The notes under the pieces are model-generated. The model did not search any database, was not told where the DNA came from, and was given only the letters and a program-made list of their open reading frames with translations. Positions 1 to 11,687 of a stretch of DNA of 12,065 nt are shown piece by piece. Made by a program: the position numbers and the translations under genes. This DNA comes from Candidatus Jordarchaeia archaeon. Its GTDB lineage: Archaea > Asgardarchaeota > Jordiarchaeia > Jordiarchaeales > Jordiarchaeaceae. Every line of letters begins with the position of its first letter. The stretch's first letter is position 1. Location of the stretch: positions 1-12,065 of the forward strand of contig JAHQXB010000115.1 of NCBI GenBank assembly GCA_029856435.1, written 5' to 3'.

Positions 1-1824
1 CAGTCCAAGTGGGCCAGCCAAGTAGCATACGAGCTGGACGCCAAAATAGTGGAGGCCCTCAAACAACACGTACAAGAGTTCGAAGAAAAAATAGCAAACG
101 CCAAACACCAAACAGAAAACACCCTCAGCAAAAGTTTAGGTGAGTTTGAGAAAAAGATTTCTAATCTACAAGATACCATCAGTGTTACTTTGAGTGAGGA
201 GGTAGGATTAATTGAGAAAATTGAAAAGGAGATTAAAAGTGAATTAGAAGACAAGGTTTCTTTGTTGTTGGAGGAGAATCAAAAGTCGGTTGAGAGTTTG
301 AAAAGTATTAGTGAGCAAAGGATTAAAAGTAGTTTGAACTATTTAGGGGAAGAAAGTAACAAGTTAAAAAATAGCTTTTCTTCTTTGATTAACAAAAAAT
401 TGGAAGAAAAGAGAGTGGAAAATGAGAAATTAGCTAAAAGCGTGCAGGAAAAAATTGAAGAAGAGAGGAAGGCGTTGGAGAATATAGGTTTAATTCTATT
501 CAGTGAAGCTACCAACACGTTAAATATGCAACTTATCGAAACCAAAGAAACAATAGGTAAGAGTCGAGAGATACTGCTTGAACACATTTCAGAACTAATT
601 GGAGCCATTAAAGATTCAAAAGAGAAAGCTGTAAAAAATATGTTTGAAAATGTGCATCTGGAACTTGAAAGTTTTCAAACGATAATGCGAGACCTAAATG
701 AAGAAATCGTATCTTTAATGGAAAAGCAGGAGAAAAAGTTGGAGAGCCTCGTAGAAGTCGCCAAACGCGATACAGAAGAGAAGATTAAAAAAATTGTGCA
801 GGAAAACACTGATTTTGCAAAATCATTAAAAGATGAAACAAAAGAAACCTTTGCAAATAATTCTAAGGCAATAGAGGAAACACTCAAGGTCACTAGGGAA
901 TCATTAACAAATATGGTAATGGAACACACTAAAGAGTTAGAGGAACAAAAAGAGCGCATTAAAGTCTCATTAGTGGAATCCTTAAACAGTTATTTGGGGG
1001 AGCTAAGAAGAGCAGTTTCCAGCTTTAAGGAGCAGACATCACAATTGATAAAGGGACACCTAGACGATTACAACAGAACAATTAGCGAAGCCAAAGAGAA
1101 AACAGTGGAAACATTAAATAACCACTCAGGAACGCTGATTCAAACCGTAATTCAGATCCAAAGCAAAGTGGGTGAAACCCTGAGTAAACACGAAGGGGAT
1201 GTTAAACTTTTAATTGATAAAATACAGAGTTACCTCAGCTCCAATCTCGAAAAAACAGAAAACTCCATCGCCACATACATAAATGAAACATCCTCGGCTG
1301 TCAACACTCTATTTGAGAGAACAGAAAACGATTCTGAAAAAACCGCGGAACTCCTCAAATCTGCTTGGAAAGAGTTGGAAAAATCGAAGTTAAACGAAAT
1401 CCAAAAAACCTGGCACCTAGCTACAAAGGAGTCAATAATAGCACATATAGTAGATATGGTTAGAAGAGCCTCAAAATCAATAACAATAATCGTCCCCAAC
1501 CTCCAAGATATTCCAACGGGGGAACTACTGAAAAAAGAGGAATCAGTAATAATACACCTAGTAACAAACTTCAGTGAGGAGGAAACAAAAGAAGTAGAAA
1601 AGCTCCTAAAAAAGAAAATTAGGATATGGAAAAATACTCGAGGAAAACTCTACGGCTGCATAAAAGATCAACAGGAAACACTACTTGCACCCTTAAACGC
1701 CACAGAAGTACCAGTAGCAGTAGTCAGCGAAGAAGAGGGATATGCAAAAGTATACCAGAACATAATATTGCCCAACCTAATAGCTAAAGCTCAAGAAATC
1801 AACCCCCTCAAAACAGAAATTTAA
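1..1824 (+). CDS. Long amphipathic/coiled-coil 22-mer repeat protein with C-terminal PLD-like (TrmB sugar-binding-domain-like) domain; 5' end lies outside the window
   Basis: Frame is open from base 1 (QSKWASQVAYELDAKIVEALK...) to TAA 1822-1824, so the GTG at 49 is probably not the true start. The region up to ~1374 is E/K/S/L-rich and helical. From 1408 (TWHLATKESIIAHIVDMVRRASKSITIIVP...IKDQQETLLAP) it reads as an alpha/beta domain resembling the PLD-fold effector domain of TrmB-type proteins, without HxK. Confidence 0.8.
   Translation, partial: QSKWASQVAYELDAKIVEALKQHVQEFEEKIANAKHQTENTLSKSLGEFEKKISNLQDTISVTLSEEVGLIEKIEKEIKSELEDKVSLLLEENQKSVESLKSISEQRIKSSLNYLGEESNKLKNSFSSLINKKLEEKRVENEKLAKSVQEKIEEERKALENIGLILFSEATNTLNMQLIETKETIGKSREILLEHISELIGAIKDSKEKAVKNMFENVHLELESFQTIMRDLNEEIVSLMEKQEKKLESLVEVAKRDTEEKIKKIVQENTDFAKSLKDETKETFANNSKAIEETLKVTRESLTNMVMEHTKELEEQKERIKVSLVESLNSYLGELRRAVSSFKEQTSQLIKGHLDDYNRTISEAKEKTVETLNNHSGTLIQTVIQIQSKVGETLSKHEGDVKLLIDKIQSYLSSNLEKTENSIATYINETSSAVNTLFERTENDSEKTAELLKSAWKELEKSKLNEIQKTWHLATKESIIAHIVDMVRRASKSITIIVPNLQDIPTGELLKKEESVIIHLVTNFSEEETKEVEKLLKKKIRIWKNTRGKLYGCIKDQQETLLAPLNATEVPVAVVSEEEGYAKVYQNIILPNLIAKAQEINPLKTEI
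55..1374 (+). repeat. 20 consecutive degenerate 22-aa (2x11) repeats within ORF1
   Basis: Cut into 22-mers from ALKQH..., the protein needs no gaps. Position 2 is hydrophobic in all 20 units (e.g. TLSKSLGEF.., TLSEEVGLI.., TLNMQLIET.., SLNSYLGEL.., TLNNHSGTL.., TLSKHEGDV..), and positions 6, 9, 13, 16 and 20 are mostly hydrophobic. No obvious repeat is visible at the DNA level. Confidence 0.85.
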
Positions 1825-2100: not shown

Positions 2101-3165
2101 TTAGTAAATTCGGCTTGCGACGAAGTCCGCTAGATTTAGGAAAAATTCTTGTGATTCTTTTTTTAGTGGTGGTTTAGTTTTAAGTAGCCTTTTTTTGGCT
2201 TCTTCCTTTAGCTCTAGCGCCAGTTTTTTGGATTTCTCCAGAGCTCCAGTTTCTTGAAATATTTCCCTAACCCTTTCTACATCATTTGGATTTGCATCTG
2301 AATCGCCGAGCACCTTCTTGAGAATGTTTAGGTCATTAGAAGAAGCATTGTTTAATGCATGAACCACTAATACGGTTTTTTTGCCTTCTTTGATATCTCC
2401 ATCTGTTGGTTTTCCCGTGTCTGACTCCACTCCGAATGTTCCCAGTATGTCATCCTGAATCTGGAAGGATTGCCCCACCAGCACCGCGTATTCTCTGAGC
2501 ATTTTGATTTGGCTCGCTTTTGCTCCCCCCAATACTGCCCCGATTTGTATGGATTTTTCCAGTAGAGAAGAGGTTTTCATTTTCACCATTTGTAAGTATT
2601 CATCGAGTGTCACACTTTCTTTTCTTTGAATCACGCTCTCGTACATGACCCCGTCAATTAGTTCTTGAAATACTTGTTGGTAGAGTCGGATAGCTTCACA
2701 GATCAGTTTATGGGGAAACTTGGAGGATAGAAGGGTCTCTATGCCCAAATTATAGGTGGTATTTCCACCCAAAATTGCCATGGTGTTTCCAAAGTCTTCA
2801 GCTTTGGTGCTTGACATAAATTCCTTCTTGTACCACTCTCTATAAGTTACGTGGAATGTGGGGCCGCTTCTTCGGAGCTCATCGTGGTCTATGATGTCAT
2901 CGTGGATTAATGTTGCATTGTGAAGGAGTTCGACGGAAAGGGAGGGAAGGAATATTTTCTCGCTGGAATCCGCTACTCCCCTGTAGGCTTGGATGAGGGA
3001 AATTGGCCTGAGCCTTTTTCCTCCCCGCATAATAAACTCTTTAATATTTAAGTAGTATGTTCGGTGATAGGAGAAAGGCGCCATTGCAATTTTACGATCC
3101 AAAAAGGAAACAAGAACCTGATTGACCTTGTTTGAGAGATCCTCTACGACCTGACTGAATTGCAA
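2101..3165 (-). CDS. idsA: Trans-isoprenyl diphosphate synthase (polyprenyl synthetase family; GGPP synthase-like, possibly longer-chain)
   Basis: Motifs GGKRLRP, FARM HDDIIDHDELRR, KT, SARM FQIQDDILG and GKPTDGDIKEGKKT. The ORF extends to ATG 3237. TTG at 3165 is preferred because it has an AAGGAG SD-like sequence 8 nt upstream and gives a typical 354 aa, but the start is uncertain. Confidence 0.95.
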   Translation of the reverse strand: MQFSQVVEDLSNKVNQVLVSFLDRKIAMAPFSYHRTYYLNIKEFIMRGGKRLRPISLIQAYRGVADSSEKIFLPSLSVELLHNATLIHDDIIDHDELRRSGPTFHVTYREWYKKEFMSSTKAEDFGNTMAILGGNTTYNLGIETLLSSKFPHKLICEAIRLYQQVFQELIDGVMYESVIQRKESVTLDEYLQMVKMKTSSLLEKSIQIGAVLGGAKASQIKMLREYAVLVGQSFQIQDDILGTFGVESDTGKPTDGDIKEGKKTVLVVHALNNASSNDLNILKKVLGDSDANPNDVERVREIFQETGALEKSKKLALELKEEAKKRLLKTKPPLKKESQEFFLNLADFVASRIY

Positions 3166-3557
3166 TCTTATCTCTCCTTGAACCCAAGAGTTATAGATTC
3201 GGTCTAAGGTTTCTCGTGACTTTAAGATTTGAAACATTTAATCTTTTCTTATGAACCTTAGGAGTGATTCGTCAAAATTACAAGAATACACCATTTCCTC
3301 TTATTAATACGTATTTTAATCCAAATTGGGAAAAGAGAACATATTCAGCATTCTTCAAATCTTCTGGAATTTCAAGATTAATTGCTTTCAAGAAAACCTA
3401 CTTTTTCCACATTTTTGTGCTAAATAATTGCCCTGCAAGCGGGTAATTTACATACCCTTTAGTCAAATTTGCATTCAACAGGCATCGCATCACAAATTCC
3501 AACGATAGGGGGATAAATGCTAAAATTGTCGATTCAACATTAAGACAATGCACAATA

Positions 3558-3565: not shown

Positions 3566-3651
3566 CGCTATAAGTAGCCATGAATCGCTAACCACATACT
3601 AATTCCTAATAATACTTCTAACATCTTTTATCTTGAGGGTAGTTAAAATTG

Positions 3652-4722
3652 ATGAAACCAAGCCAACCAGTAGGGATAATCGGCTGGGGAGCATATATAC
3701 CCCAATACAGAATCAAAGTAAACACAATTGCACAAGTATGGGGCGCCCAGACCGAAAGGTACACCGAAGGACTGGGAATAGAGGAAAAGGCAGTGGCAGG
3801 ACCCGATGAAGACACAATCACAATCGCTATAGAAGCAGCCCAAAACGCAATAAAAAGAGCCCAAATAGAACCCAAAGAAATCGGGGCAGTACTATCAGGA
3901 TCCGAATCCCCGCCCTACGCCGTCAAACCTACTGGTTGCACGGTAGCAGAAGTTATAGGGGCAACACCCAACATATTGGCAGCGGATTTAGAGTTCGCCT
4001 GCAAAGCAGGCACTGAAGGAATACAATTCTGCATGGGGTTAGTATCCTCAGGCATGATAAAGTACGGCATGGCCATAGGTGCAGATGTAGCCCAAAGCGC
4101 ACCCGGCGACGATTTGGAATACGCCGCCGCGGCAGGAGGAGCCGCCTTCATTATAGGCAAACTAGACAGCAACGCTGCCGCCGCTATCAACGCCTCAACC
4201 TCCTATGTCACAGACACACCGGACTTCTGGAGACGCTCGGAGCAGCCCTATCCCAAACATGGAGGCGTATTCACAGGACAATCATACTTCCACCATATAT
4301 TGAATGCAGGGAAGCAATTAATGCAAGATTTGGGCATGAACCCCAAAGATTTTCAGTATGCCATATTTCATCAACCCAACGGGAAATTTCCGGAAAAGGC
4401 GGCAAGGGAATTAGGTTTCACGTCGGAACAGATAAGGGTGGGAATGCTGGTGAACAGAATAGGCAACACGTATTCGGGTTGCATTCCCCTAGGTTTATCA
4501 GCAGTTTTGGAGGCTGCCAAACCGGGAGACAACATATTTGTGGTTTCATATGGTTCTGGGGCGGGAAGCGACGCATTCCACATCGTAGCCCTAGATGCCA
4601 TTGAAAATAAACGTGAATTAGCCCCTACGGTTCAAGATTACATAGAAAGGAAGGAGTACGTGGGTTATGCTTGTTACGCTAAATGGCGAAAAATGATAAT
4701 TGGATTAGAAACAAAAAGATAA
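3652..4722 (+). CDS. hmgB: Hydroxymethylglutaryl-CoA synthase, archaeal type
   Basis: Catalytic motifs GSES (Glu), FACKAGT (Cys), FHQPNGKFP (His), GNTYSG and SYGSGAGSDAF. ATG at 3652 follows an in-frame TTG at 3649. Confidence 0.97.
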   Translation: MKPSQPVGIIGWGAYIPQYRIKVNTIAQVWGAQTERYTEGLGIEEKAVAGPDEDTITIAIEAAQNAIKRAQIEPKEIGAVLSGSESPPYAVKPTGCTVAEVIGATPNILAADLEFACKAGTEGIQFCMGLVSSGMIKYGMAIGADVAQSAPGDDLEYAAAAGGAAFIIGKLDSNAAAAINASTSYVTDTPDFWRRSEQPYPKHGGVFTGQSYFHHILNAGKQLMQDLGMNPKDFQYAIFHQPNGKFPEKAARELGFTSEQIRVGMLVNRIGNTYSGCIPLGLSAVLEAAKPGDNIFVVSYGSGAGSDAFHIVALDAIENKRELAPTVQDYIERKEYVGYACYAKWRKMIIGLETKR

Positions 4723-4742
4723 TCAATGGAGGGTAAATAGGT

Positions 4743-5894
4743 ATGAGAGAAGTTGCAGTTATAGGAGTTGGACTAACTAAAGTTGGCCATCTATTCAGTG
4801 AATCTTTACGTTCCCTATTTTCAAGAGCTATTAGAGGAGCCCTTGAAGATGCGGGGAATCCTAAAATTGAAGCACTCTATGTTGGCAACATGTCTGCAGG
4901 ACAGTTCAATAACCAAGAGAACATCGCTGCCTTACTATCAGATTTTGCGGGTCTAAACGGGATTCCAGCAACGAGAATTGAGGAGGGTTGTGGTTCTGGC
5001 GCCGCAGCCATTTACAATGGGTATAAGGCTGTAGCTTCGGGAGTCCACGACTTCGTGGTGGTGGGAGGAGTGGAAAAAATGATGGACACTACCGCTAACG
5101 ATGCTACCTCGATTATTTCAACAGTCACTGACCAAGAGTATGAGGCGTTTCTTGGTCTCTCCTTGGTGGGAATCAACGCCATGGTAATGCGGCTTTACAT
5201 GAACACATTCAATGTTGACAGAGAACCCTTCGCAAAATTCTCGGTGCAGATGCATGAAAATGCCTCGAAAAACCCCTATGCTCAGTTTCCATTTAAAATC
5301 TCTCTGGATAAGGCAATGAACTCAAACCCAGTGGCGGATCCGATACACCTTATGGATTGTGCGCCCCTAGGCGACGGGGCGGCGGCCCTAGTTCTGTGCC
5401 CCAAGGAATACGCAAAAGACTTTACCTCTAAACCCGTAGAGATTATAGGCGCAGGGCATGGTATGGATAACTTCATATTCCACACCAGGGACGACTTCCT
5501 CTCTCTCAAGGCTATCCGAGATGCGGCAAGAGAGGCTTACAGGATGGCGGGAATCACACCAGACGAGGTAGACGTGGTAGAGTTACACGATGCCTTTTCA
5601 ATAACTGCCTTTTTGTCGATTGAGGATTTGGGTTTTGTGGAAAAAGGTGCCGCGGGCCAACTAGTTGATGAGGGACTAATTGGTTTGGATGGGACTCTGT
5701 CCGTGAATCCCTCCGGAGGGTTAAAGGCGAGGGGGCACCCAATTGGAGCCACAGGGGTTTACCAAATGGCGGAGATTGTACTGCAGCTTCGTGGAGAGGC
5801 AGGAGCCAGACAGGTACCGGGTGCTGAAATAGGACTTACAAATAATATAAGTGGTTTTGGCGCTTCATCCTATGTACATATTCTTAGGGTTTAG
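4743..5894 (+). CDS. acaB: Acetoacetyl-CoA thiolase (acetyl-CoA C-acetyltransferase), archaeal type
   Basis: Nucleophile motif EEGCGSG, VVGGVEKM, DCAPLGDGAAA, ELHDAF and NPSGGLKARGHPIGATG. Lies between HMGS and DUF35, the usual archaeal triad. GGAGG SD upstream. Confidence 0.95.
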   Translation: MREVAVIGVGLTKVGHLFSESLRSLFSRAIRGALEDAGNPKIEALYVGNMSAGQFNNQENIAALLSDFAGLNGIPATRIEEGCGSGAAAIYNGYKAVASGVHDFVVVGGVEKMMDTTANDATSIISTVTDQEYEAFLGLSLVGINAMVMRLYMNTFNVDREPFAKFSVQMHENASKNPYAQFPFKISLDKAMNSNPVADPIHLMDCAPLGDGAAALVLCPKEYAKDFTSKPVEIIGAGHGMDNFIFHTRDDFLSLKAIRDAAREAYRMAGITPDEVDVVELHDAFSITAFLSIEDLGFVEKGAAGQLVDEGLIGLDGTLSVNPSGGLKARGHPIGATGVYQMAEIVLQLRGEAGARQVPGAEIGLTNNISGFGASSYVHILRV

Positions 5895-5908
5895 GTAGGG
5901 GTCGAAAA

Positions 5909-6325
5909 ATGCAGGTTTCAAAGTTTTGGAGAGAACTCCCCCAACGTTACAGGTTAGAGGGTAAAAAGTGCGTCCAGTGCGGAAAGGTTTGCTTTCCACC
6001 TAGGGATATCTGCCCCAGCTGCGGTTCAGATCAAATGGTAAAAGCTATTTTGCCTAAGAGAGGAAAAATCGTAACATACACGGTTATGTATACTGCGCCG
6101 GCCAATTTTGAAATATTCAAACCCTACATTATTGCCTTGGTGCAATTGGAGGATGGGACACACCTTACCACCCAGCTCACAGACTGTAAGCCTGAAAACA
6201 TAGAGATTGGAATGGATGTGGAGGCCGTTATTAGAAAGATAAACGAAGATGGGAAAGATGGAATAATTTACTATGCCTACAAATTCCGTCCAGTCCTAAA
6301 AAAGGCCGAGAAGAAACTGAACTAG
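5909..6325 (+). CDS. acaC: DUF35 Zn-ribbon/OB-fold scaffold protein of the thiolase-HMGS complex
   Basis: CxxC-x10-CxxC (KCVQCGKVCFPPRDICPSCG), then an OB-fold region (GKIVTYTV...PYIIALVQLEDG...IGMDVEAVIRKI...YAYKFRP). Confidence 0.95.
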   Translation: MQVSKFWRELPQRYRLEGKKCVQCGKVCFPPRDICPSCGSDQMVKAILPKRGKIVTYTVMYTAPANFEIFKPYIIALVQLEDGTHLTTQLTDCKPENIEIGMDVEAVIRKINEDGKDGIIYYAYKFRPVLKKAEKKLN

Positions 6326-6382
6326 CAGTCGAGAAGAAGCATCTCTACTTTTAATTGGTTGTTTTCTGTGTGCGTTGAAATC

Positions 6383-6396
6383 AAAAAGATTAAATG
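6383..6396 (+). promoter_or_regulatory. Possible internal BRE/TATA promoter upstream of the UbiD gene
   Basis: AAAAAG (6383-6388) is followed by ATTAAATG (6389-6396), about 30 nt before GTG 6423. It sits in the only long (97 nt) gap of the cluster, after a T-rich tract. Confidence 0.3.
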
Positions 6397-6422
6397 TCAC
6401 ACCACTTTCTATAAGGTAACAA

Positions 6423-7739
6423 GTGGTAAGGAGCCTGTCGTTTTTGAGAGAGTTTATCGAGGATCTCAAGTCTCGTAACATGATAGTTGAGATTAACAAA
6501 AATGTGCCCCTAACAAAAATTCCTGCACTTTTAAAGAAGCTGGATGGTAGGCCAGTTCTATTTAACATGGTGGAAAATACACCTTACAGGATAGTTGGGA
6601 ATATTTGTTCTAGCAGAGACCTTTTAGCTCTCTCCCTAGGGGTGAGAAGGGAAGGGTTATTATCACGATTAGCTGAAGCTTTTGAAAAAAGAAGTGAACC
6701 AGAAATAGTTAAGAGTGGGCGGTGCCAGGAAATAGAGGAAACAGTTAATCTGAACAAATTACCAATTCTTACTCACACTTTGGGAGATGGAGGCCCCTAC
6801 GTTACTTCAGGGGTGCTTATACTTCGTGACCCCGAGTTTGGGAGAAACGCCTCTATTCACAGACTTATGAAGTTGGATGATAGAAGGTTTGCTGTGAGGC
6901 TTGTGGAAGAGAGAGACGCAGATGTCTATTTAAAGAGAGCTGGCGGAGAATTGGATGTTGCAATTTGTATTGGCAATCATCCCTCACTCTTGCTAGCGGC
7001 AGCCACATCCCTAGACATAACTGTGGACGAGTTGGAAATAGCCAATAGTTTAAGAGAACTGAAGCTGGTTAAGTGTAAAAAAGTGGATTTAGAGGTACCA
7101 GAAAATTCGGAGATAGTACTGGAAGGAAGAATAATTAATGAGTTGGTGGATGAGGGACCCTTCCTGGACTTAACTGGTACCTATGACATTATTAGGAAAC
7201 AGCCAGTAATTGAAGTTACCCATTTCACCCATACTAGAAATCCCATATATCAGGCTCTGCTTCCAGGAGGACTTGACCACAAGCTTCTCATGAGTCTGCC
7301 GAGAGAGACTGCCATTTACAATGAAGTGAAGAAGGTTTGTGAATGCAAAAATGTGTTAATAACTCCTGGAGGATGCTCCTGGCTCCACGGAATAGTGCAA
7401 ATCTGCAAAAAGAAGCCTGAAGATGGAATGAACGCGATAGAAGCAGCATTTAGAGCCCATAAATCTATGAAACACGTAGTCGTGGTGGACGAGGACATAG
7501 ACATTTACGATTTGAACTCTGTTGAGTATGCCATCGCCACAAGGTTCCAGGCATCAAAGAATCTCGTTTTAAGAAAGGATAAAGGTTCATCGCTTGATCC
7601 TTCAGCAAACCAAGTGACCCGAGAAACAACCAAGGTTGGAGTCGACGCCACAATACCATTTGATAAGGATAGAACTCACTTTATCCCTGTAAAAATCATT
7701 GGGGAAGAAACCATAAGGGTTGAAGATTATGTATCTTAA
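6423..7739 (+). CDS. ubiD: UbiD-family prFMN-dependent decarboxylase; probable trans-anhydromevalonate 5-phosphate decarboxylase
   Basis: UbiD motifs DGGPYVTSG, RNASIHRL, EIVLEGRI, EGPFLDLTGTYD, VVVVDEDIDI, AIATRFQ, GSSLDPS and TTKVGVDAT. Its stop overlaps the AcnX large-subunit gene, which supports the AMPD role. Alternative start TTG 6444 (MREFIEDL). Confidence 0.9.
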   Translation: MVRSLSFLREFIEDLKSRNMIVEINKNVPLTKIPALLKKLDGRPVLFNMVENTPYRIVGNICSSRDLLALSLGVRREGLLSRLAEAFEKRSEPEIVKSGRCQEIEETVNLNKLPILTHTLGDGGPYVTSGVLILRDPEFGRNASIHRLMKLDDRRFAVRLVEERDADVYLKRAGGELDVAICIGNHPSLLLAAATSLDITVDELEIANSLRELKLVKCKKVDLEVPENSEIVLEGRIINELVDEGPFLDLTGTYDIIRKQPVIEVTHFTHTRNPIYQALLPGGLDHKLLMSLPRETAIYNEVKKVCECKNVLITPGGCSWLHGIVQICKKKPEDGMNAIEAAFRAHKSMKHVVVVDEDIDIYDLNSVEYAIATRFQASKNLVLRKDKGSSLDPSANQVTRETTKVGVDATIPFDKDRTHFIPVKIIGEETIRVEDYVS

Positions 7740-8916
7740 TAGGGAAGAAGAGAAAATCCTTCAAGGCGAGTACGGCGAGGCGCAAAGGCTTGCCATGAAA
7801 ATACTTTGCGCTCTGGGAGATTTCTTCAAAGCGGAGAGGCTGATAAAAATCGAGTCCGCCCACATATCGGGGGTCTCATACAAAACTGGTGGAGATGCGT
7901 TAATTGAAGTTCTAGAGAGATTCGTAAAGGGCGAAACTAAAATCTTGGTGGCATCCACTCTTAATCCGAGTGGAATGGACCTAGACAGATGGAGAGAGAT
8001 GGGTGTAACAGAAGGTTTCGCCCAAAAACAGAGCGAAATAATAAAAATTTACAAAGCTATGGGCATCCTTGATTTATGCAGCTGCATACCATACGAATTG
8101 GGCAATGTTGCAAAGCTTGGTGACCACATATCGTTTTCAGAGTCCTCAGCAGTAACCTTTATGAACTCCTTTTTTGGAGCCTATACAAATAGAGAAAGCG
8201 GGCTTTCCGCCCTAGCCTCAGCAATAGTTGGGAAAACACCAGAGTATGGGATACACTTACCAGAGAACAGAATGCCCGAAATACTTGTGGAATTGGATGC
8301 AGAACTCAACAATCCCACGGATTATGGCTTGTTGGGATATAGCATTGGGAAGAGCTTCGGCTCAAAAATTCCACTTTTACATAAGGTTCCAAGTATAGAC
8401 CTGCAGCAAGCCAAACAGCTCTCAGCAGCTATGGCGGCATCTGGCTCTGTACCACTATTCTACATTCGCAATTATGAAGAAAGAAAATTCGAGAAAGAAC
8501 ACCCGGAAAAAGTAATATTTGACCAGAAAAAGTTGAAGGCTCTCAGAGAAGATTTTGCTCCCACATCACAACCAGACATCGTTATGGTTGGGTGCCCTCA
8601 TACTTCACTAAGTATCCTCAAAAAGATTTCCGAAACACTTGTGTCGCCAGTATCAAATCAAACTAAGCTGTGGATTTTCACCTCCAGACCCATTAAATTG
8701 ATGGCGGAATCTATGGGATACACCCAAAAAATAGAGCGAATGGGAGGCAAAATTTTCTGCGACACTTGCCCTGTGGTCTGCCCCATCCCTAGATTCGACT
8801 TAGCTTTAACTGATTCCATTAAAGCTGCCCATTACCTTCCAACAATGAGTAAAATTGAATCTGCGTCTTTGCCCCTCGAAGACTGCTTAAAAATAGCTAT
8901 GGGAGGGAAAGTGTAA
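7729..8916 (+). CDS. Phosphomevalonate dehydratase large subunit (aconitase X catalytic domain, Fe-S)
   Basis: Typical N-terminus MYLNREEEKILQGEYGE (ATG 7729; ORF opens at TTG 7720), HISGVSY, TLNP, ESSAV, TNRESG and GKTPEYG. Three candidate cluster-ligating Cys in SCIPY, GCPH and DTCP. Confidence 0.93.
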   Translation: MYLNREEEKILQGEYGEAQRLAMKILCALGDFFKAERLIKIESAHISGVSYKTGGDALIEVLERFVKGETKILVASTLNPSGMDLDRWREMGVTEGFAQKQSEIIKIYKAMGILDLCSCIPYELGNVAKLGDHISFSESSAVTFMNSFFGAYTNRESGLSALASAIVGKTPEYGIHLPENRMPEILVELDAELNNPTDYGLLGYSIGKSFGSKIPLLHKVPSIDLQQAKQLSAAMAASGSVPLFYIRNYEERKFEKEHPEKVIFDQKKLKALREDFAPTSQPDIVMVGCPHTSLSILKKISETLVSPVSNQTKLWIFTSRPIKLMAESMGYTQKIERMGGKIFCDTCPVVCPIPRFDLALTDSIKAAHYLPTMSKIESASLPLEDCLKIAMGGKV

Positions 8917-9347
8917 TGAGGTTGGTACTAAAAGGAGAAGGGCTGAGAGGGTTAAAAAATCCCAGAGTAGAGGGAGAGGCACTCGTAACCCAGATGCCCA
9001 TATCCTTCCTTGGATTCGTAGACCCAAACACGGGCACGGTTATCCAAAAGGGACACGAACTAGAGGGAAAAAGCATTAAAGGAAAAGTACTAGTATTCAG
9101 CACCGGGATAGGGTCAACCGTGGGATCATACGTTTTGATAAATCTTGCAAATAGGGGGTTGGCTCCTAAAGCGATTATTCAGAGGGAATCCGACACCGTA
9201 ACACTCGTGGGAGCAGTTATTGGAGAAATCCCCCTTGTACACCGATTAGAAAAGGATCCCCTCGCCGTGATAAAAAATGGTGACAGAGTAATGGTGGATA
9301 GCGAAAAAGGAATAGTGGAAATCGAAAAAAGAGAAGGAAGTGGGTAA
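8916..9347 (+). CDS. Phosphomevalonate dehydratase small subunit (DUF126, aconitase X swivel domain)
   Basis: VEGEALVTQMPISFLGFVDPNTG, HELEGKSIKGKVLVF and GSTVGSY with the catalytic Ser. TAATG stop/start overlap with the large subunit. Confidence 0.95.
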   Translation: MRLVLKGEGLRGLKNPRVEGEALVTQMPISFLGFVDPNTGTVIQKGHELEGKSIKGKVLVFSTGIGSTVGSYVLINLANRGLAPKAIIQRESDTVTLVGAVIGEIPLVHRLEKDPLAVIKNGDRVMVDSEKGIVEIEKREGSG

Positions 9348-9350
9348 AAA

Positions 9351-10628
9351 ATGGCTCAAGAAAAAATTACTCAAGAAGAACTGATTGAAAAAGTAGTCAA
9401 AGGAGAAATCAAATTCTACCAAGTCGAAAAATACACCGATATAGAAACCGCAACAACCATTAGAAGAAAAGCTATAGAAAAAATAATTGGGAAAGAGCTC
9501 AAACATATAGGATCCTACTCAATAGATATGAAGCAGACAGCATCAAGAAACATTGAAGCCCCCATAGGAGTTCAACAAATACCCCTAGGAATCGCCGGTC
9601 CCCTAAAAGTGAAAGGAGAAATAGCAGACGGCGAATACCTAATCCCTTTAGCCACAACTGAGGGGGCTCTGGTGGCAAGCGTCAATAGAGGATGCAGCAT
9701 CATAACAGCAAGCGGCGGAGCAAAGGCGCGAGTACTAAAAAGCGCCATTACCCGAGCACCATGTATCCTAGTTCCAGACACTGAGCACGCAGTTAAACTT
9801 GTAAATTGGGTGAAAGACAATTTCGAAAAAATATGCGAAGTTTTTAAAGGACAAGATCCCTTCCTAAAACTTCTAGATTTCCAGCCCTGGATAATTGGGA
9901 GAAACGTCTTCCTCAGACTGCTAGCAGACACCGCCGACGCCATGGGAATGAATATGGTAACCAGCGCATCCGAAGCAGTGTGCAACTTTATTCAGGAGCA
10001 TCTCCCCTGGGCAGAAACCGTAGCACTCAGCGGAAACATGTGCGTCGACAAGAAGCCAACAGCCCTAAACTTTATTCTAGGAAGAGGAAAAACCGTCCAA
10101 TCCGAAGCCATCCTAAAAAAGGAATACATAAAAGAAACCCTAAAAACCACCGCCCAAAAAATGGTCGAGGTTGTTTATCGCAAAATATACGTAGGTAGCG
10201 GTCAAGCAGCCTCCTACGGATTTAATTCCCACGTAGCAAACATCATCGCCGCCATATGGATCGCCACCGGGCAGGACGCCGCCCACATAGGAGAATCAAG
10301 TATGGGAATAGTCACAGCCGAAGAAATCAATGACGGTGACTTATACGTATCCCTAACACTTCCCTCAATGATATGCGGAACTATAGGAGGGGGAATGTGG
10401 CTAAGCCAGATGCAAGAAGCGCTCTACATAATGGACTGTGGCGGAGGCTTCATAAAAGGAAAACCTCCAGGAACCCTCGCCAAAAAATTTGCCGAAATTG
10501 CCTGCTCAGCAGCACTCGCTGGAGAGATATCCCTCATTGCCGCACTCGCCGCCGGCCACCTAGCACGTGCACATGAAGCACTGGGAAGAGGAGAAACCGC
10601 CCGAAAAAAAGTGGAAAAACTCTTTTAA
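9351..10628 (+). CDS. hmgA: HMG-CoA reductase, class I (archaeal), with atypical cofactor-binding residues
   Basis: ATTEGALVASVNRG (catalytic Glu), DAMGMNM, DKKP (Lys), TGQDAAH (Asp), GTIGGG and HLARAH (His). Confidence 0.97.
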   Translation: MAQEKITQEELIEKVVKGEIKFYQVEKYTDIETATTIRRKAIEKIIGKELKHIGSYSIDMKQTASRNIEAPIGVQQIPLGIAGPLKVKGEIADGEYLIPLATTEGALVASVNRGCSIITASGGAKARVLKSAITRAPCILVPDTEHAVKLVNWVKDNFEKICEVFKGQDPFLKLLDFQPWIIGRNVFLRLLADTADAMGMNMVTSASEAVCNFIQEHLPWAETVALSGNMCVDKKPTALNFILGRGKTVQSEAILKKEYIKETLKTTAQKMVEVVYRKIYVGSGQAASYGFNSHVANIIAAIWIATGQDAAHIGESSMGIVTAEEINDGDLYVSLTLPSMICGTIGGGMWLSQMQEALYIMDCGGGFIKGKPPGTLAKKFAEIACSAALAGEISLIAALAAGHLARAHEALGRGETARKKVEKLF

Positions 10629-10946: not shown

Positions 10947-11687
10947 ATGTCTGGAGATGCGAATTTCCTAGATAAATTGAAGGGTGAATTACGCTCATTC
11001 GGAGCAATAACTGATAAAGGGTTAGCTCTACTTACAATGAAAGGCGAAGTTCTCTACTCAGATTTAACAAAAGAAGTTGAGCAGAGGCTCATGTTGTTTA
11101 AACCAAGCTTCCCGGGTCTAACTGTCGGGTCAAACATTACACTCGCAGCGGAAAACGAATCTTTAATTGTAATACGCGCCTCGCAACAAATCCTAATGGC
11201 GGTGCAGACCCAGCAGAGGGTGGGCTTAACCCTAGTCATGCTATCAGGCCTCATCAAAAGATACGGGAGTAAATTCGATGAATTCGCACAGACCGTAAAA
11301 ATCGCCCCACCGGCGATAAAGCCAACAGTCAAAATAGAAAAACCAGCACCAGCGGCAGTAATAGAGACCCCCATAAAAGAAATGGTTGTAAAAGAAGAAG
11401 CCAGAGAAGTTGAGGCAGAATTAACTGAAAAAGAGGTTGAAGCCTACCAAAAATCATTAATATATGAGCTCATCCCACCACTAACTCCCGAAAACGTGCT
11501 AAACAAGTCTGGGGTATGGAGCAGAGCATCACGCCTAATGCTTAGAAACCTAGACCAAGATCTAACAGTGGAAGAGTTACAAGAGGGACTCAAAAATGCG
11601 GGTTTCGACGTAACTTGGCAATGGGTGTACGAAACTCTGCGCGCATTGGAAACCCGTGGAATAGTAAGAATAAAAGGTAAAAGGTAG
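10947..11687 (+). CDS. Roadblock/LC7-like domain + Pro/Ala/Glu/Lys-rich linker + C-terminal winged-helix-like domain protein
   Basis: The N-terminal ~110 aa show the Roadblock pattern (GLALLTMKGEVLYSDL ... SLIVIR ... ILMAV ... RVGLTLVML). After a low-complexity linker (APPAIKPTVKIEKPAPAA), the C-terminus LTVEELQEGL...WVYETLRALETRGIVRI fits an HTH plus wing. Fold assignment is by eye. Confidence 0.7.
   Translation: MSGDANFLDKLKGELRSFGAITDKGLALLTMKGEVLYSDLTKEVEQRLMLFKPSFPGLTVGSNITLAAENESLIVIRASQQILMAVQTQQRVGLTLVMLSGLIKRYGSKFDEFAQTVKIAPPAIKPTVKIEKPAPAAVIETPIKEMVVKEEAREVEAELTEKEVEAYQKSLIYELIPPLTPENVLNKSGVWSRASRLMLRNLDQDLTVEELQEGLKNAGFDVTWQWVYETLRALETRGIVRIKGKR

Follow-up and report, generated by a model that had tools for sequence, protein, structure and literature searches.

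The 12,065-nt stretch of Jordarchaeia (Asgard) DNA analysed here, referred to as the window, encodes a class I HMG-CoA reductase (HMGR) in which the Ser626-Arg627 pair of the human enzyme is replaced by Asp169-Pro170. We consider it probable that this enzyme prefers NADH as hydride donor, possibly with residual use of NADPH. This reading is based on the equivalence of residues between class I and class II HMGRs, on the repeated origin of the dipeptide among class I enzymes and on the Asp that class II enzymes of the same phylum carry at the corresponding site.

An intact class I reductase at the end of a mevalonate operon

The ORF of the reductase is intact and encodes 425 aa with a PF00368 match of E 5e-124 in the Pfam search. 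In a phmmer comparison with the PDB sequences the best match was 6HR7 (E 4e-118). All class I chains were found between E 4e-118 and 2e-79, those of plants and human between 1e-89 and 1e-79, while class II chains, at 5e-5 or weaker, reached only about 1e-4. An AF2 model built on 90 homologues had a mean pLDDT of 94.3, and Foldseek placed 6HR8 and 1DQA on top of the structural matches for this model (TM about 0.9, rmsd 1.7 Å), with TM values of 0.89/0.95 and an identity of 51% for 6HR8. The window protein is a class I HMG-CoA reductase and lies outside class II. Its nearest database relatives, with 88–98% identity, are labelled Freyarchaeota or Jordarchaeaceae (Asgard).

The initial annotation had described all catalytic residues as intact, and the alignment of 90 sequences agrees: Glu104, Asp233-Lys234-Lys235, Asp309 and His408 are all found in the window protein, at columns that are either invariant or conserved to at least 90%. 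Glu104, Lys234, Asp309 and His408 correspond to Glu559, Lys691, Asp767 and His866 of human HMGR. The cofactor-binding motif DAMGMNM (Asp196-Met202) is unaltered. In the C-terminal flap, HEALGR, the catalytic His408 is followed by Arg413, the equivalent of human Arg871, which the initial annotation had correctly taken to be kept; both positions are at least 90% conserved in the same alignment.

Among the enzymes of known structure the HMGR of Methanothermococcus thermolithotrophicus (6HR7 apo, 6HR8 with NADPH) has the same fold and catalytic residues as the window protein and likewise carries DAMGMNM and, at the C-terminus, the H..LGR flap; both are soluble archaeal proteins of about 420 aa. 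They differ in the cofactor loop, which reads Thr-Arg-His in the methanogen enzyme but Asp-Pro-Phe in the window. The catalytic domain of human HMGR (1DQA etc.) belongs to class I as well, and no gaps interrupt its alignment across the S-domain; it differs in having Ser626-Arg627 in place of Asp-Pro. The membrane domain and the context of Ser872 phosphorylation are found in human HMGR only and are absent from the archaeal protein.

The genes of the window and the positions within the reductase that are discussed below are collected in Table 1. Upstream of the reductase gene a co-oriented operon spans positions 3649–9347 on the forward strand, and only 3 nt separate the stop codon of the AcnX small subunit from the start codon of the reductase. 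The assembly comprises 3.54 Mb and is 97.8% complete, and the PF00368 search of this genome gave no second gene, so that the reductase is present as a single copy. An NADPH-type HMGR paralogue in the same genome was rejected on the basis of this search. Judged from the archaeal mevalonate operon and from the fact that this is the sole HMGR of the genome, its predicted role is mevalonate biosynthesis.

Table 1. Genes and reductase features in the window. Positions count from the first nucleotide of the window.
Feature	Positions	Strand	Basis
Polyprenyl synthetase, divergent orientation	2101–3237	-	PF00348, E 1e-55
HMG-CoA synthase	3649–4722	+	Pfam
Thiolase	4743–5894	+	Pfam
DUF35 scaffold	5909–6325	+	Pfam
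UbiD-family decarboxylase	6423–7739	+	Pfam
AcnX large subunit	7720–8916	+	Pfam
AcnX small subunit	8916–9347	+	Pfam
Class I HMG-CoA reductase, closing gene of the operon	9351–10628	+	PF00368
Cofactor-adenosine loop FKGQDPFLKL, residues 165–174 (TTT AAA GGA CAA GAT CCC TTC CTA AAA CTT)	9843–9872	+	
Asp169-Pro170 (GAT CCC), replacing human Ser626-Arg627	9855–9860	+	phmmer alignment
Phe171, position of human Phe628	9861–9863	+	alignment
DAMGMNM cofactor-binding motif, Asp196-Met202	9936–9956	+	translation
C-terminal flap HEALGR with catalytic His408 and Arg413	10572–10589	+	translation

At the upstream end of the window (1–1824, forward strand) a long helical protein, rich in Glu and Lys and repeat-like, runs past the window start; its only match, to apolipoprotein A1/A4/E, is weak (29.9 bits, with the cut-off at 90). 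Downstream of the reductase a 246-aa ORF (10947–11687, forward strand) is without Pfam match. Elsewhere in the genome (C29:9912-11447, C104:10770-11417 and C3:55270-55827) there are adjacent homologues of CofE (F420 ligase) and CofD and a second CofE. This gene content suggests that coenzyme F420 is synthesized in this organism.

Asp-Pro replaces two presumed ligands of the NADPH 2'-phosphate

The phmmer alignment places FKGQDPFLKL without gaps on human FDSTSRFARL, with Asp-Pro over Ser-Arg, exactly as the initial annotation had proposed. In the human chain 1DQ8 (467 aa) this Ser-Arg is found at chain positions 205–206, which we take to be residues 626–627, provided that the construct ends at residue 888. 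The columns of the window Asp-Pro are occupied, again without gaps, by Ser-Arg in Arabidopsis (8ECG/7ULI) and by Thr-Arg in M. thermolithotrophicus (6HR7/6HR8). A placement of the dipeptide outside positions 626–627, which would have spoken against the proposal, was thus observed for neither the human, nor the plant, nor the methanogen enzyme.

According to what Istvan et al. reportedly described in 2000, Ser626, Arg627 and Arg871 of human HMGR bind the 2'-phosphate of NADPH specifically. Two of these three presumed ligand positions are replaced in the window protein (Asp169, Pro170) and Arg413 alone is left, so that the full set of NADPH ligands characteristic of class I is missing. NADPH exclusivity is a described property of the characterised class I members and lies outside the sequence definition of the class. 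The NADPH contacts listed for human HMGR comprise Ser626, Arg627, Phe628, Asp653, Met655-Asn658, Val805, Asn870 and Arg871 (PMC7503714).

In the AF2 model residues 167–172 form a loop between the helix 158–166 and the strand 173–182. We had also considered that Ser, Thr or Asp followed by Pro might be equivalent as helix N-caps; this idea was dropped for class I, as the model has residues 167–172 in a loop and not at a helix start.

The site corresponds to the NADH determinant of class II

A likeness to the Asp of NADH-dependent class II HMGRs had merely been asserted in the initial annotation. We compared the two classes using a class II set of eight genes from plasmid records, numbered against Pseudomonas mevalonii 1QAX. 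Within class II, Asp146-Gln147-Leu148...Leu152 of 1QAX aligns with D-P-Q-L...L of the Sagittula enzyme, and D-P is also found in the class II HMGR of Ruegeria pomeroyi (9V7Y). An Asp is located at the homologous column in the NADH-dependent class II enzymes 1QAX, R. pomeroyi 9V7Y, Delftia acidovorans 6DIO and Burkholderia cenocepacia 6P7K. It is Asp146 in P. mevalonii and Asp154 in R. pomeroyi, and in R. pomeroyi and Sagittula it is followed by Pro as in the window protein. When 85 class I sequences were aligned with the class II set by hhalign, Asp169-Pro170 fell on Asp146-x147 with a probability of 99.8–100%, in global as well as in local mode. The profile-profile alignment therefore supports the earlier assertion: Asp169 occupies the site homologous to Asp146, the class II residue that determines NADH use.

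Asp146 is invariant in NADH-specific class II enzymes, where it contacts the 2'/3'-OH, while NADPH-type enzymes have Tyr or His instead; a class II D146A + L148R mutant was shifted toward NADPH (PMC10070635; PMC12292504). Class II positions 148/152 are Leu/Leu in P. mevalonii and Ser/Arg in E. faecalis. Position 148 corresponds to Phe171 of the window protein, which is no phosphate ligand; position 152 falls into an alignment gap and is without class I counterpart, and Arg413 is retained.

Class II enzymes share only about 25% identity with the window HMGR and differ from it in the flap domain, and their hairpin leading from the Asp site to DAMG has 10 additional residues. Whereas class II Asp146 is located on a short helix (PMC10070635), Asp169 lies in a loop in the AF2 model, and its geometry may differ from that of Asp146 despite the shared column.

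Distribution of Asp-Pro among class I enzymes

The family as a whole was represented by 150 clusters at 50% identity; at the first loop position 141 (about 94%) of their representatives have Ser or Thr and 8 have Asp or Glu. The deviation thus exceeds chance, but it is not peculiar to this gene: all close relatives and several other archaeal lineages share it, and among anaerobic archaea the motif is widespread. All 13 relatives with at least 72% identity to the window HMGR (P0002-P0014) carry Asp-Pro. It is further found, rarely as Glu-Pro, in proteins labelled Helarchaeota, Promethearchaeota, Nezhaarchaeota, Thermoprotei, Syntropharchaeia and Alkanophagales, and as Glu-Pro in a protein labelled Methanopyri. 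Asp/Glu-Pro thus recurs across Jord-, Hel-, Loki-, Nezha- and Syntropharchaeia lineages, and isolated cluster representatives with an acidic residue followed by Pro are P0092, P0129, P0191 and P0126. Ser/Thr followed by Arg/Lys or similar is retained in Thermococcus, Methanohalophilus and all representatives of eukaryotic length. The second loop position varies even in Ser/Thr-type enzymes (SS, SN, SG, SK).

P0015 (ENA, on a 1968-nt contig; 63% identity) groups with the Freyr/Jordarchaeia clade and has its C-terminus in common with P0013, but carries Ser-Ser in the loop; this is either a real reversal or the product of a chimeric short contig. In P0125, P0126, P0141 and other long representatives a prokaryote-like class I domain is part of proteins of 600–1000 aa, fused to other domains. 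P0126 (626 aa) has Glu-Pro in the loop.

Neighbouring positions differ between the two types as well. Position 171 is His in 54 of 77 Ser/Thr-type enzymes of prokaryotic length (≤480 aa), and Phe or Tyr in 77 of 80 Asp/Glu-Pro enzymes. Position 195, just before DAMGMNM, is Ala in the window HMGR; it is mostly Gly in the Ser/Thr-type and Ala, Phe or Tyr in the acidic type. The trends at positions 171 and 195 repeat in several independent origins. In the column statistics Lys149 was enriched in the Asp-Pro group. Co-variation at positions 170, 171 and 195 runs in the expected direction; in a phylogenetically paired comparison, co-variation of 170, 171, 195 and 413 with the acidic residue was not significant, with only 3 well-supported pairs and hence no power.

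Asp/Glu-Pro arose repeatedly

In a FastTree phylogeny of 269 sequences, calculated after removal of the motif columns, we counted at least 14 changes between the acidic and the hydroxyl state. An IQ-TREE analysis of 90 archaeal-type sequences gave 11 changes for the acidic state and at least 8 for Asp/Glu-Pro. The best tree uniting all 28 Asp/Glu-Pro rows was 418 lnL units worse (AU p 4e-6), and a single origin of Asp/Glu-Pro is rejected. For example, the Asp-Pro group of Syntropharchaeia/Alkanophagales adjoins the Thr-Arg group of Thermococcus in the tree, and lone Asp-Pro sequences are nested among Thr-Lys/Thr-Arg relatives. Because the tree is a gene tree, the spread of one Asp-Pro gene by horizontal transfer cannot explain the pattern. 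The changes to Asp/Glu-Pro, at least eight in number, indicate that one two-residue solution was selected again and again.

Class I and class II HMGRs in the phylum

Within the same GTDB phylum 151 genomes were sampled, and the Pfam search detected HMGR in 139 of them. A protein-based search of these 151 genomes found it in 21 only, which is an artefact of sensitivity; most of the HMGRs found with Pfam turned out to be class II. We took 95 HMGR loci from the phylum and sorted them into the two classes by HMM score, with 73 falling into class II and 22 into class I. Asp occupies position 146 in 63 of the 73 class II loci (62 Asp-Pro and one Asp-Ala); the remaining ones are one family with Asn-x and two single genomes with His-x at 146–147. 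On the class I side 16 of the 22 loci carry Asp/Glu-Pro (four families including the order of the window) and 6 carry Ser/Thr-x. For one class II enzyme that was checked individually (genome G005) the best PDB matches were the bacterial NADH-type enzymes 9V7Y and 1QAX (E 1e-126). In the sampled loci an Asp at the ribose-2' site is thus the rule in the phylum for either HMGR class, which fits a general use of NADH for the HMGR step.

Most sampled Asgard genomes contain a class II HMGR (loci L064-L123, L041-L063), and only a few families, among them the order of the window, have class I. We found no literature on class II HMGR in Asgard archaea in a search that covered few subscription journals. 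Three genomes contain two reductases, namely G143 (L033/L035 and L091), G129 (L034/L042 and L102) and G168 (L092, L093), in each case a class II enzyme with Asp-Pro and a class I enzyme with Thr-Arg or Thr-Ser. These may represent an NADH-type beside an NADPH-type enzyme, or contamination of the bins.

Cofactor preference and alternative explanations

In the mechanism we propose, the adenosine 2' pocket would be remodelled from a phosphate-binding Ser/Thr-Arg/Lys-His/Phe to Asp-Pro-Phe. The 2'-phosphate would lose a hydroxyl and a guanidinium as ligands, and the added carboxylate of Asp would repel the phosphate. The same carboxylate would hydrogen-bond the free 2'/3'-hydroxyls of NADH, like Asp146 in class II, and HMG-CoA would be converted to mevalonate mainly with NADH. 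We counted in favour of NADH that the enzyme is the sole HMGR of its genome, so that there is no second gene to supply an NADPH-type activity, and also its biosynthetic operon context. Against it we counted the public annotations of Asp-Pro class I enzymes, all of which read 'NADPH'. The retained Arg413 may mean that part of the phosphate site survives; this residue is kept in every lineage and may instead serve flap closure.

Two NAD kinase genes (PF01513 plus PF20143) are located at C42:13138-14214 and C7:19752-20501 of the same genome, from which we conclude that NADPH is available in the cell. The notion of an organism without NADP was rejected for the same reason. One of the two genes is part of an open frame of 441 aa and possibly has an additional domain.

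The availability of NADPH is one of the points in favour of an enzyme that still prefers this cofactor, with Asp-Pro as a tolerated loop variant and the 2'-phosphate held by Arg413 together with Lys149 or Lys173. Arg413 is still there, at a position conserved to at least 90%, the variable second position in Ser/Thr-type enzymes implies that Arg627 itself is dispensable, and the enriched Lys149 could in principle give a substitute positive charge. We nevertheless regard this explanation as unlikely: replacing a hydroxyl by a carboxylate beside a phosphate is not a neutral change, the identical dipeptide arose repeatedly, and Asp169 coincides with the column of the class II NADH determinant.

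An enzyme using NADH and NADPH with comparable efficiency, in the manner of some Asp-bearing class II HMGRs that accept both, would look the same in sequence as one that prefers NADH. Arg413 could preserve some affinity for the phosphate, and the class II HMGR of A. fulgidus, which carries the Asp, works with either cofactor but favours NAD(H) (PMC12292504). With Ser/Thr and Arg/Lys gone, and often His171 too, the phosphate site should be strongly weakened, and we rate truly dual specificity as improbable.

It is very improbable that the altered pocket accommodates a different hydride donor, for example F420H2. The Asp-Pro lineages Methanopyri-like, Syntropharchaeia, Alkanophagales and Nezhaarchaeota are F420 users, and the CofE and CofD genes for F420 biosynthesis are present in the genome of the window, so that gene absence provides no argument against such a donor. 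To our knowledge, however, no HMGR binds F420, neither the fold as a whole nor the DAMGMNM motif that binds the nicotinamide has changed, and the change is limited to the adenosine-ribose site, where it copies the NADH solution of class II. That the protein is an HMGR-derived acyl-CoA reductase (FcrA-like) instead of an HMG-CoA reductase is scarcely credible, given that it is the only PF00368 gene of an archaeon needing mevalonate, that the gene is translationally adjacent to the HMGS, thiolase, DUF35, PMDh and AMPD genes, and that its product shares 51% identity with 6HR8, the HMGR of M. thermolithotrophicus, in the Foldseek comparison.

Implications for HMG-CoA reductases and archaeal lipid synthesis

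Up to 2026 class I HMGRs have been stated to use NADPH exclusively or primarily (PMC13488460; PMC13001223; PMC10070635; PMC12292504). We found no NADH-using class I HMGR in the literature accessible to us, which covered few subscription journals, and the titles and abstracts of the literature on 'NADH-dependent HMGR' mention neither a class I nor an archaeal enzyme. What appears to be new here is that the Asp-Pro of class I is equated with the Asp146 column, together with its multiple origins and the phylum-wide Asp in class II.

Extending the preference for NADH beyond the window protein, we lean slightly towards the view that NADH dependence characterises a large group of archaeal class I HMGRs that has hitherto gone unnoticed (Jord-, Hel-, Loki-, Nezha-, Syntropharchaeia and others). 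This state would have originated at least 8 times by the change from Ser/Thr-Arg to Asp-Pro, mirroring the determinant of class II.

The initial annotation had pointed to redox balancing in engineered isoprenoid production as an application. This expectation is weakened: with NADH-dependent class II HMGRs already established as routine tools, the gain for metabolic engineering would be modest. The consequences for the enzyme family would be larger. If the predicted preference is true, the rule that class I uses NADPH only would be overturned, and a two-residue, directly testable specificity switch would be available in the class containing the human drug target. That class I and class II came to carry Asp-Pro repeatedly and independently would then be a clean case of convergent cofactor engineering by evolution. 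Many strictly anaerobic archaea, Asgard included, would fund their isoprenoid lipids from the NADH pool. Together with the Asp-bearing class II enzymes, this would mean that the synthesis of membrane-lipid precursors in the archaeal relatives of eukaryotes is generally driven by NADH.
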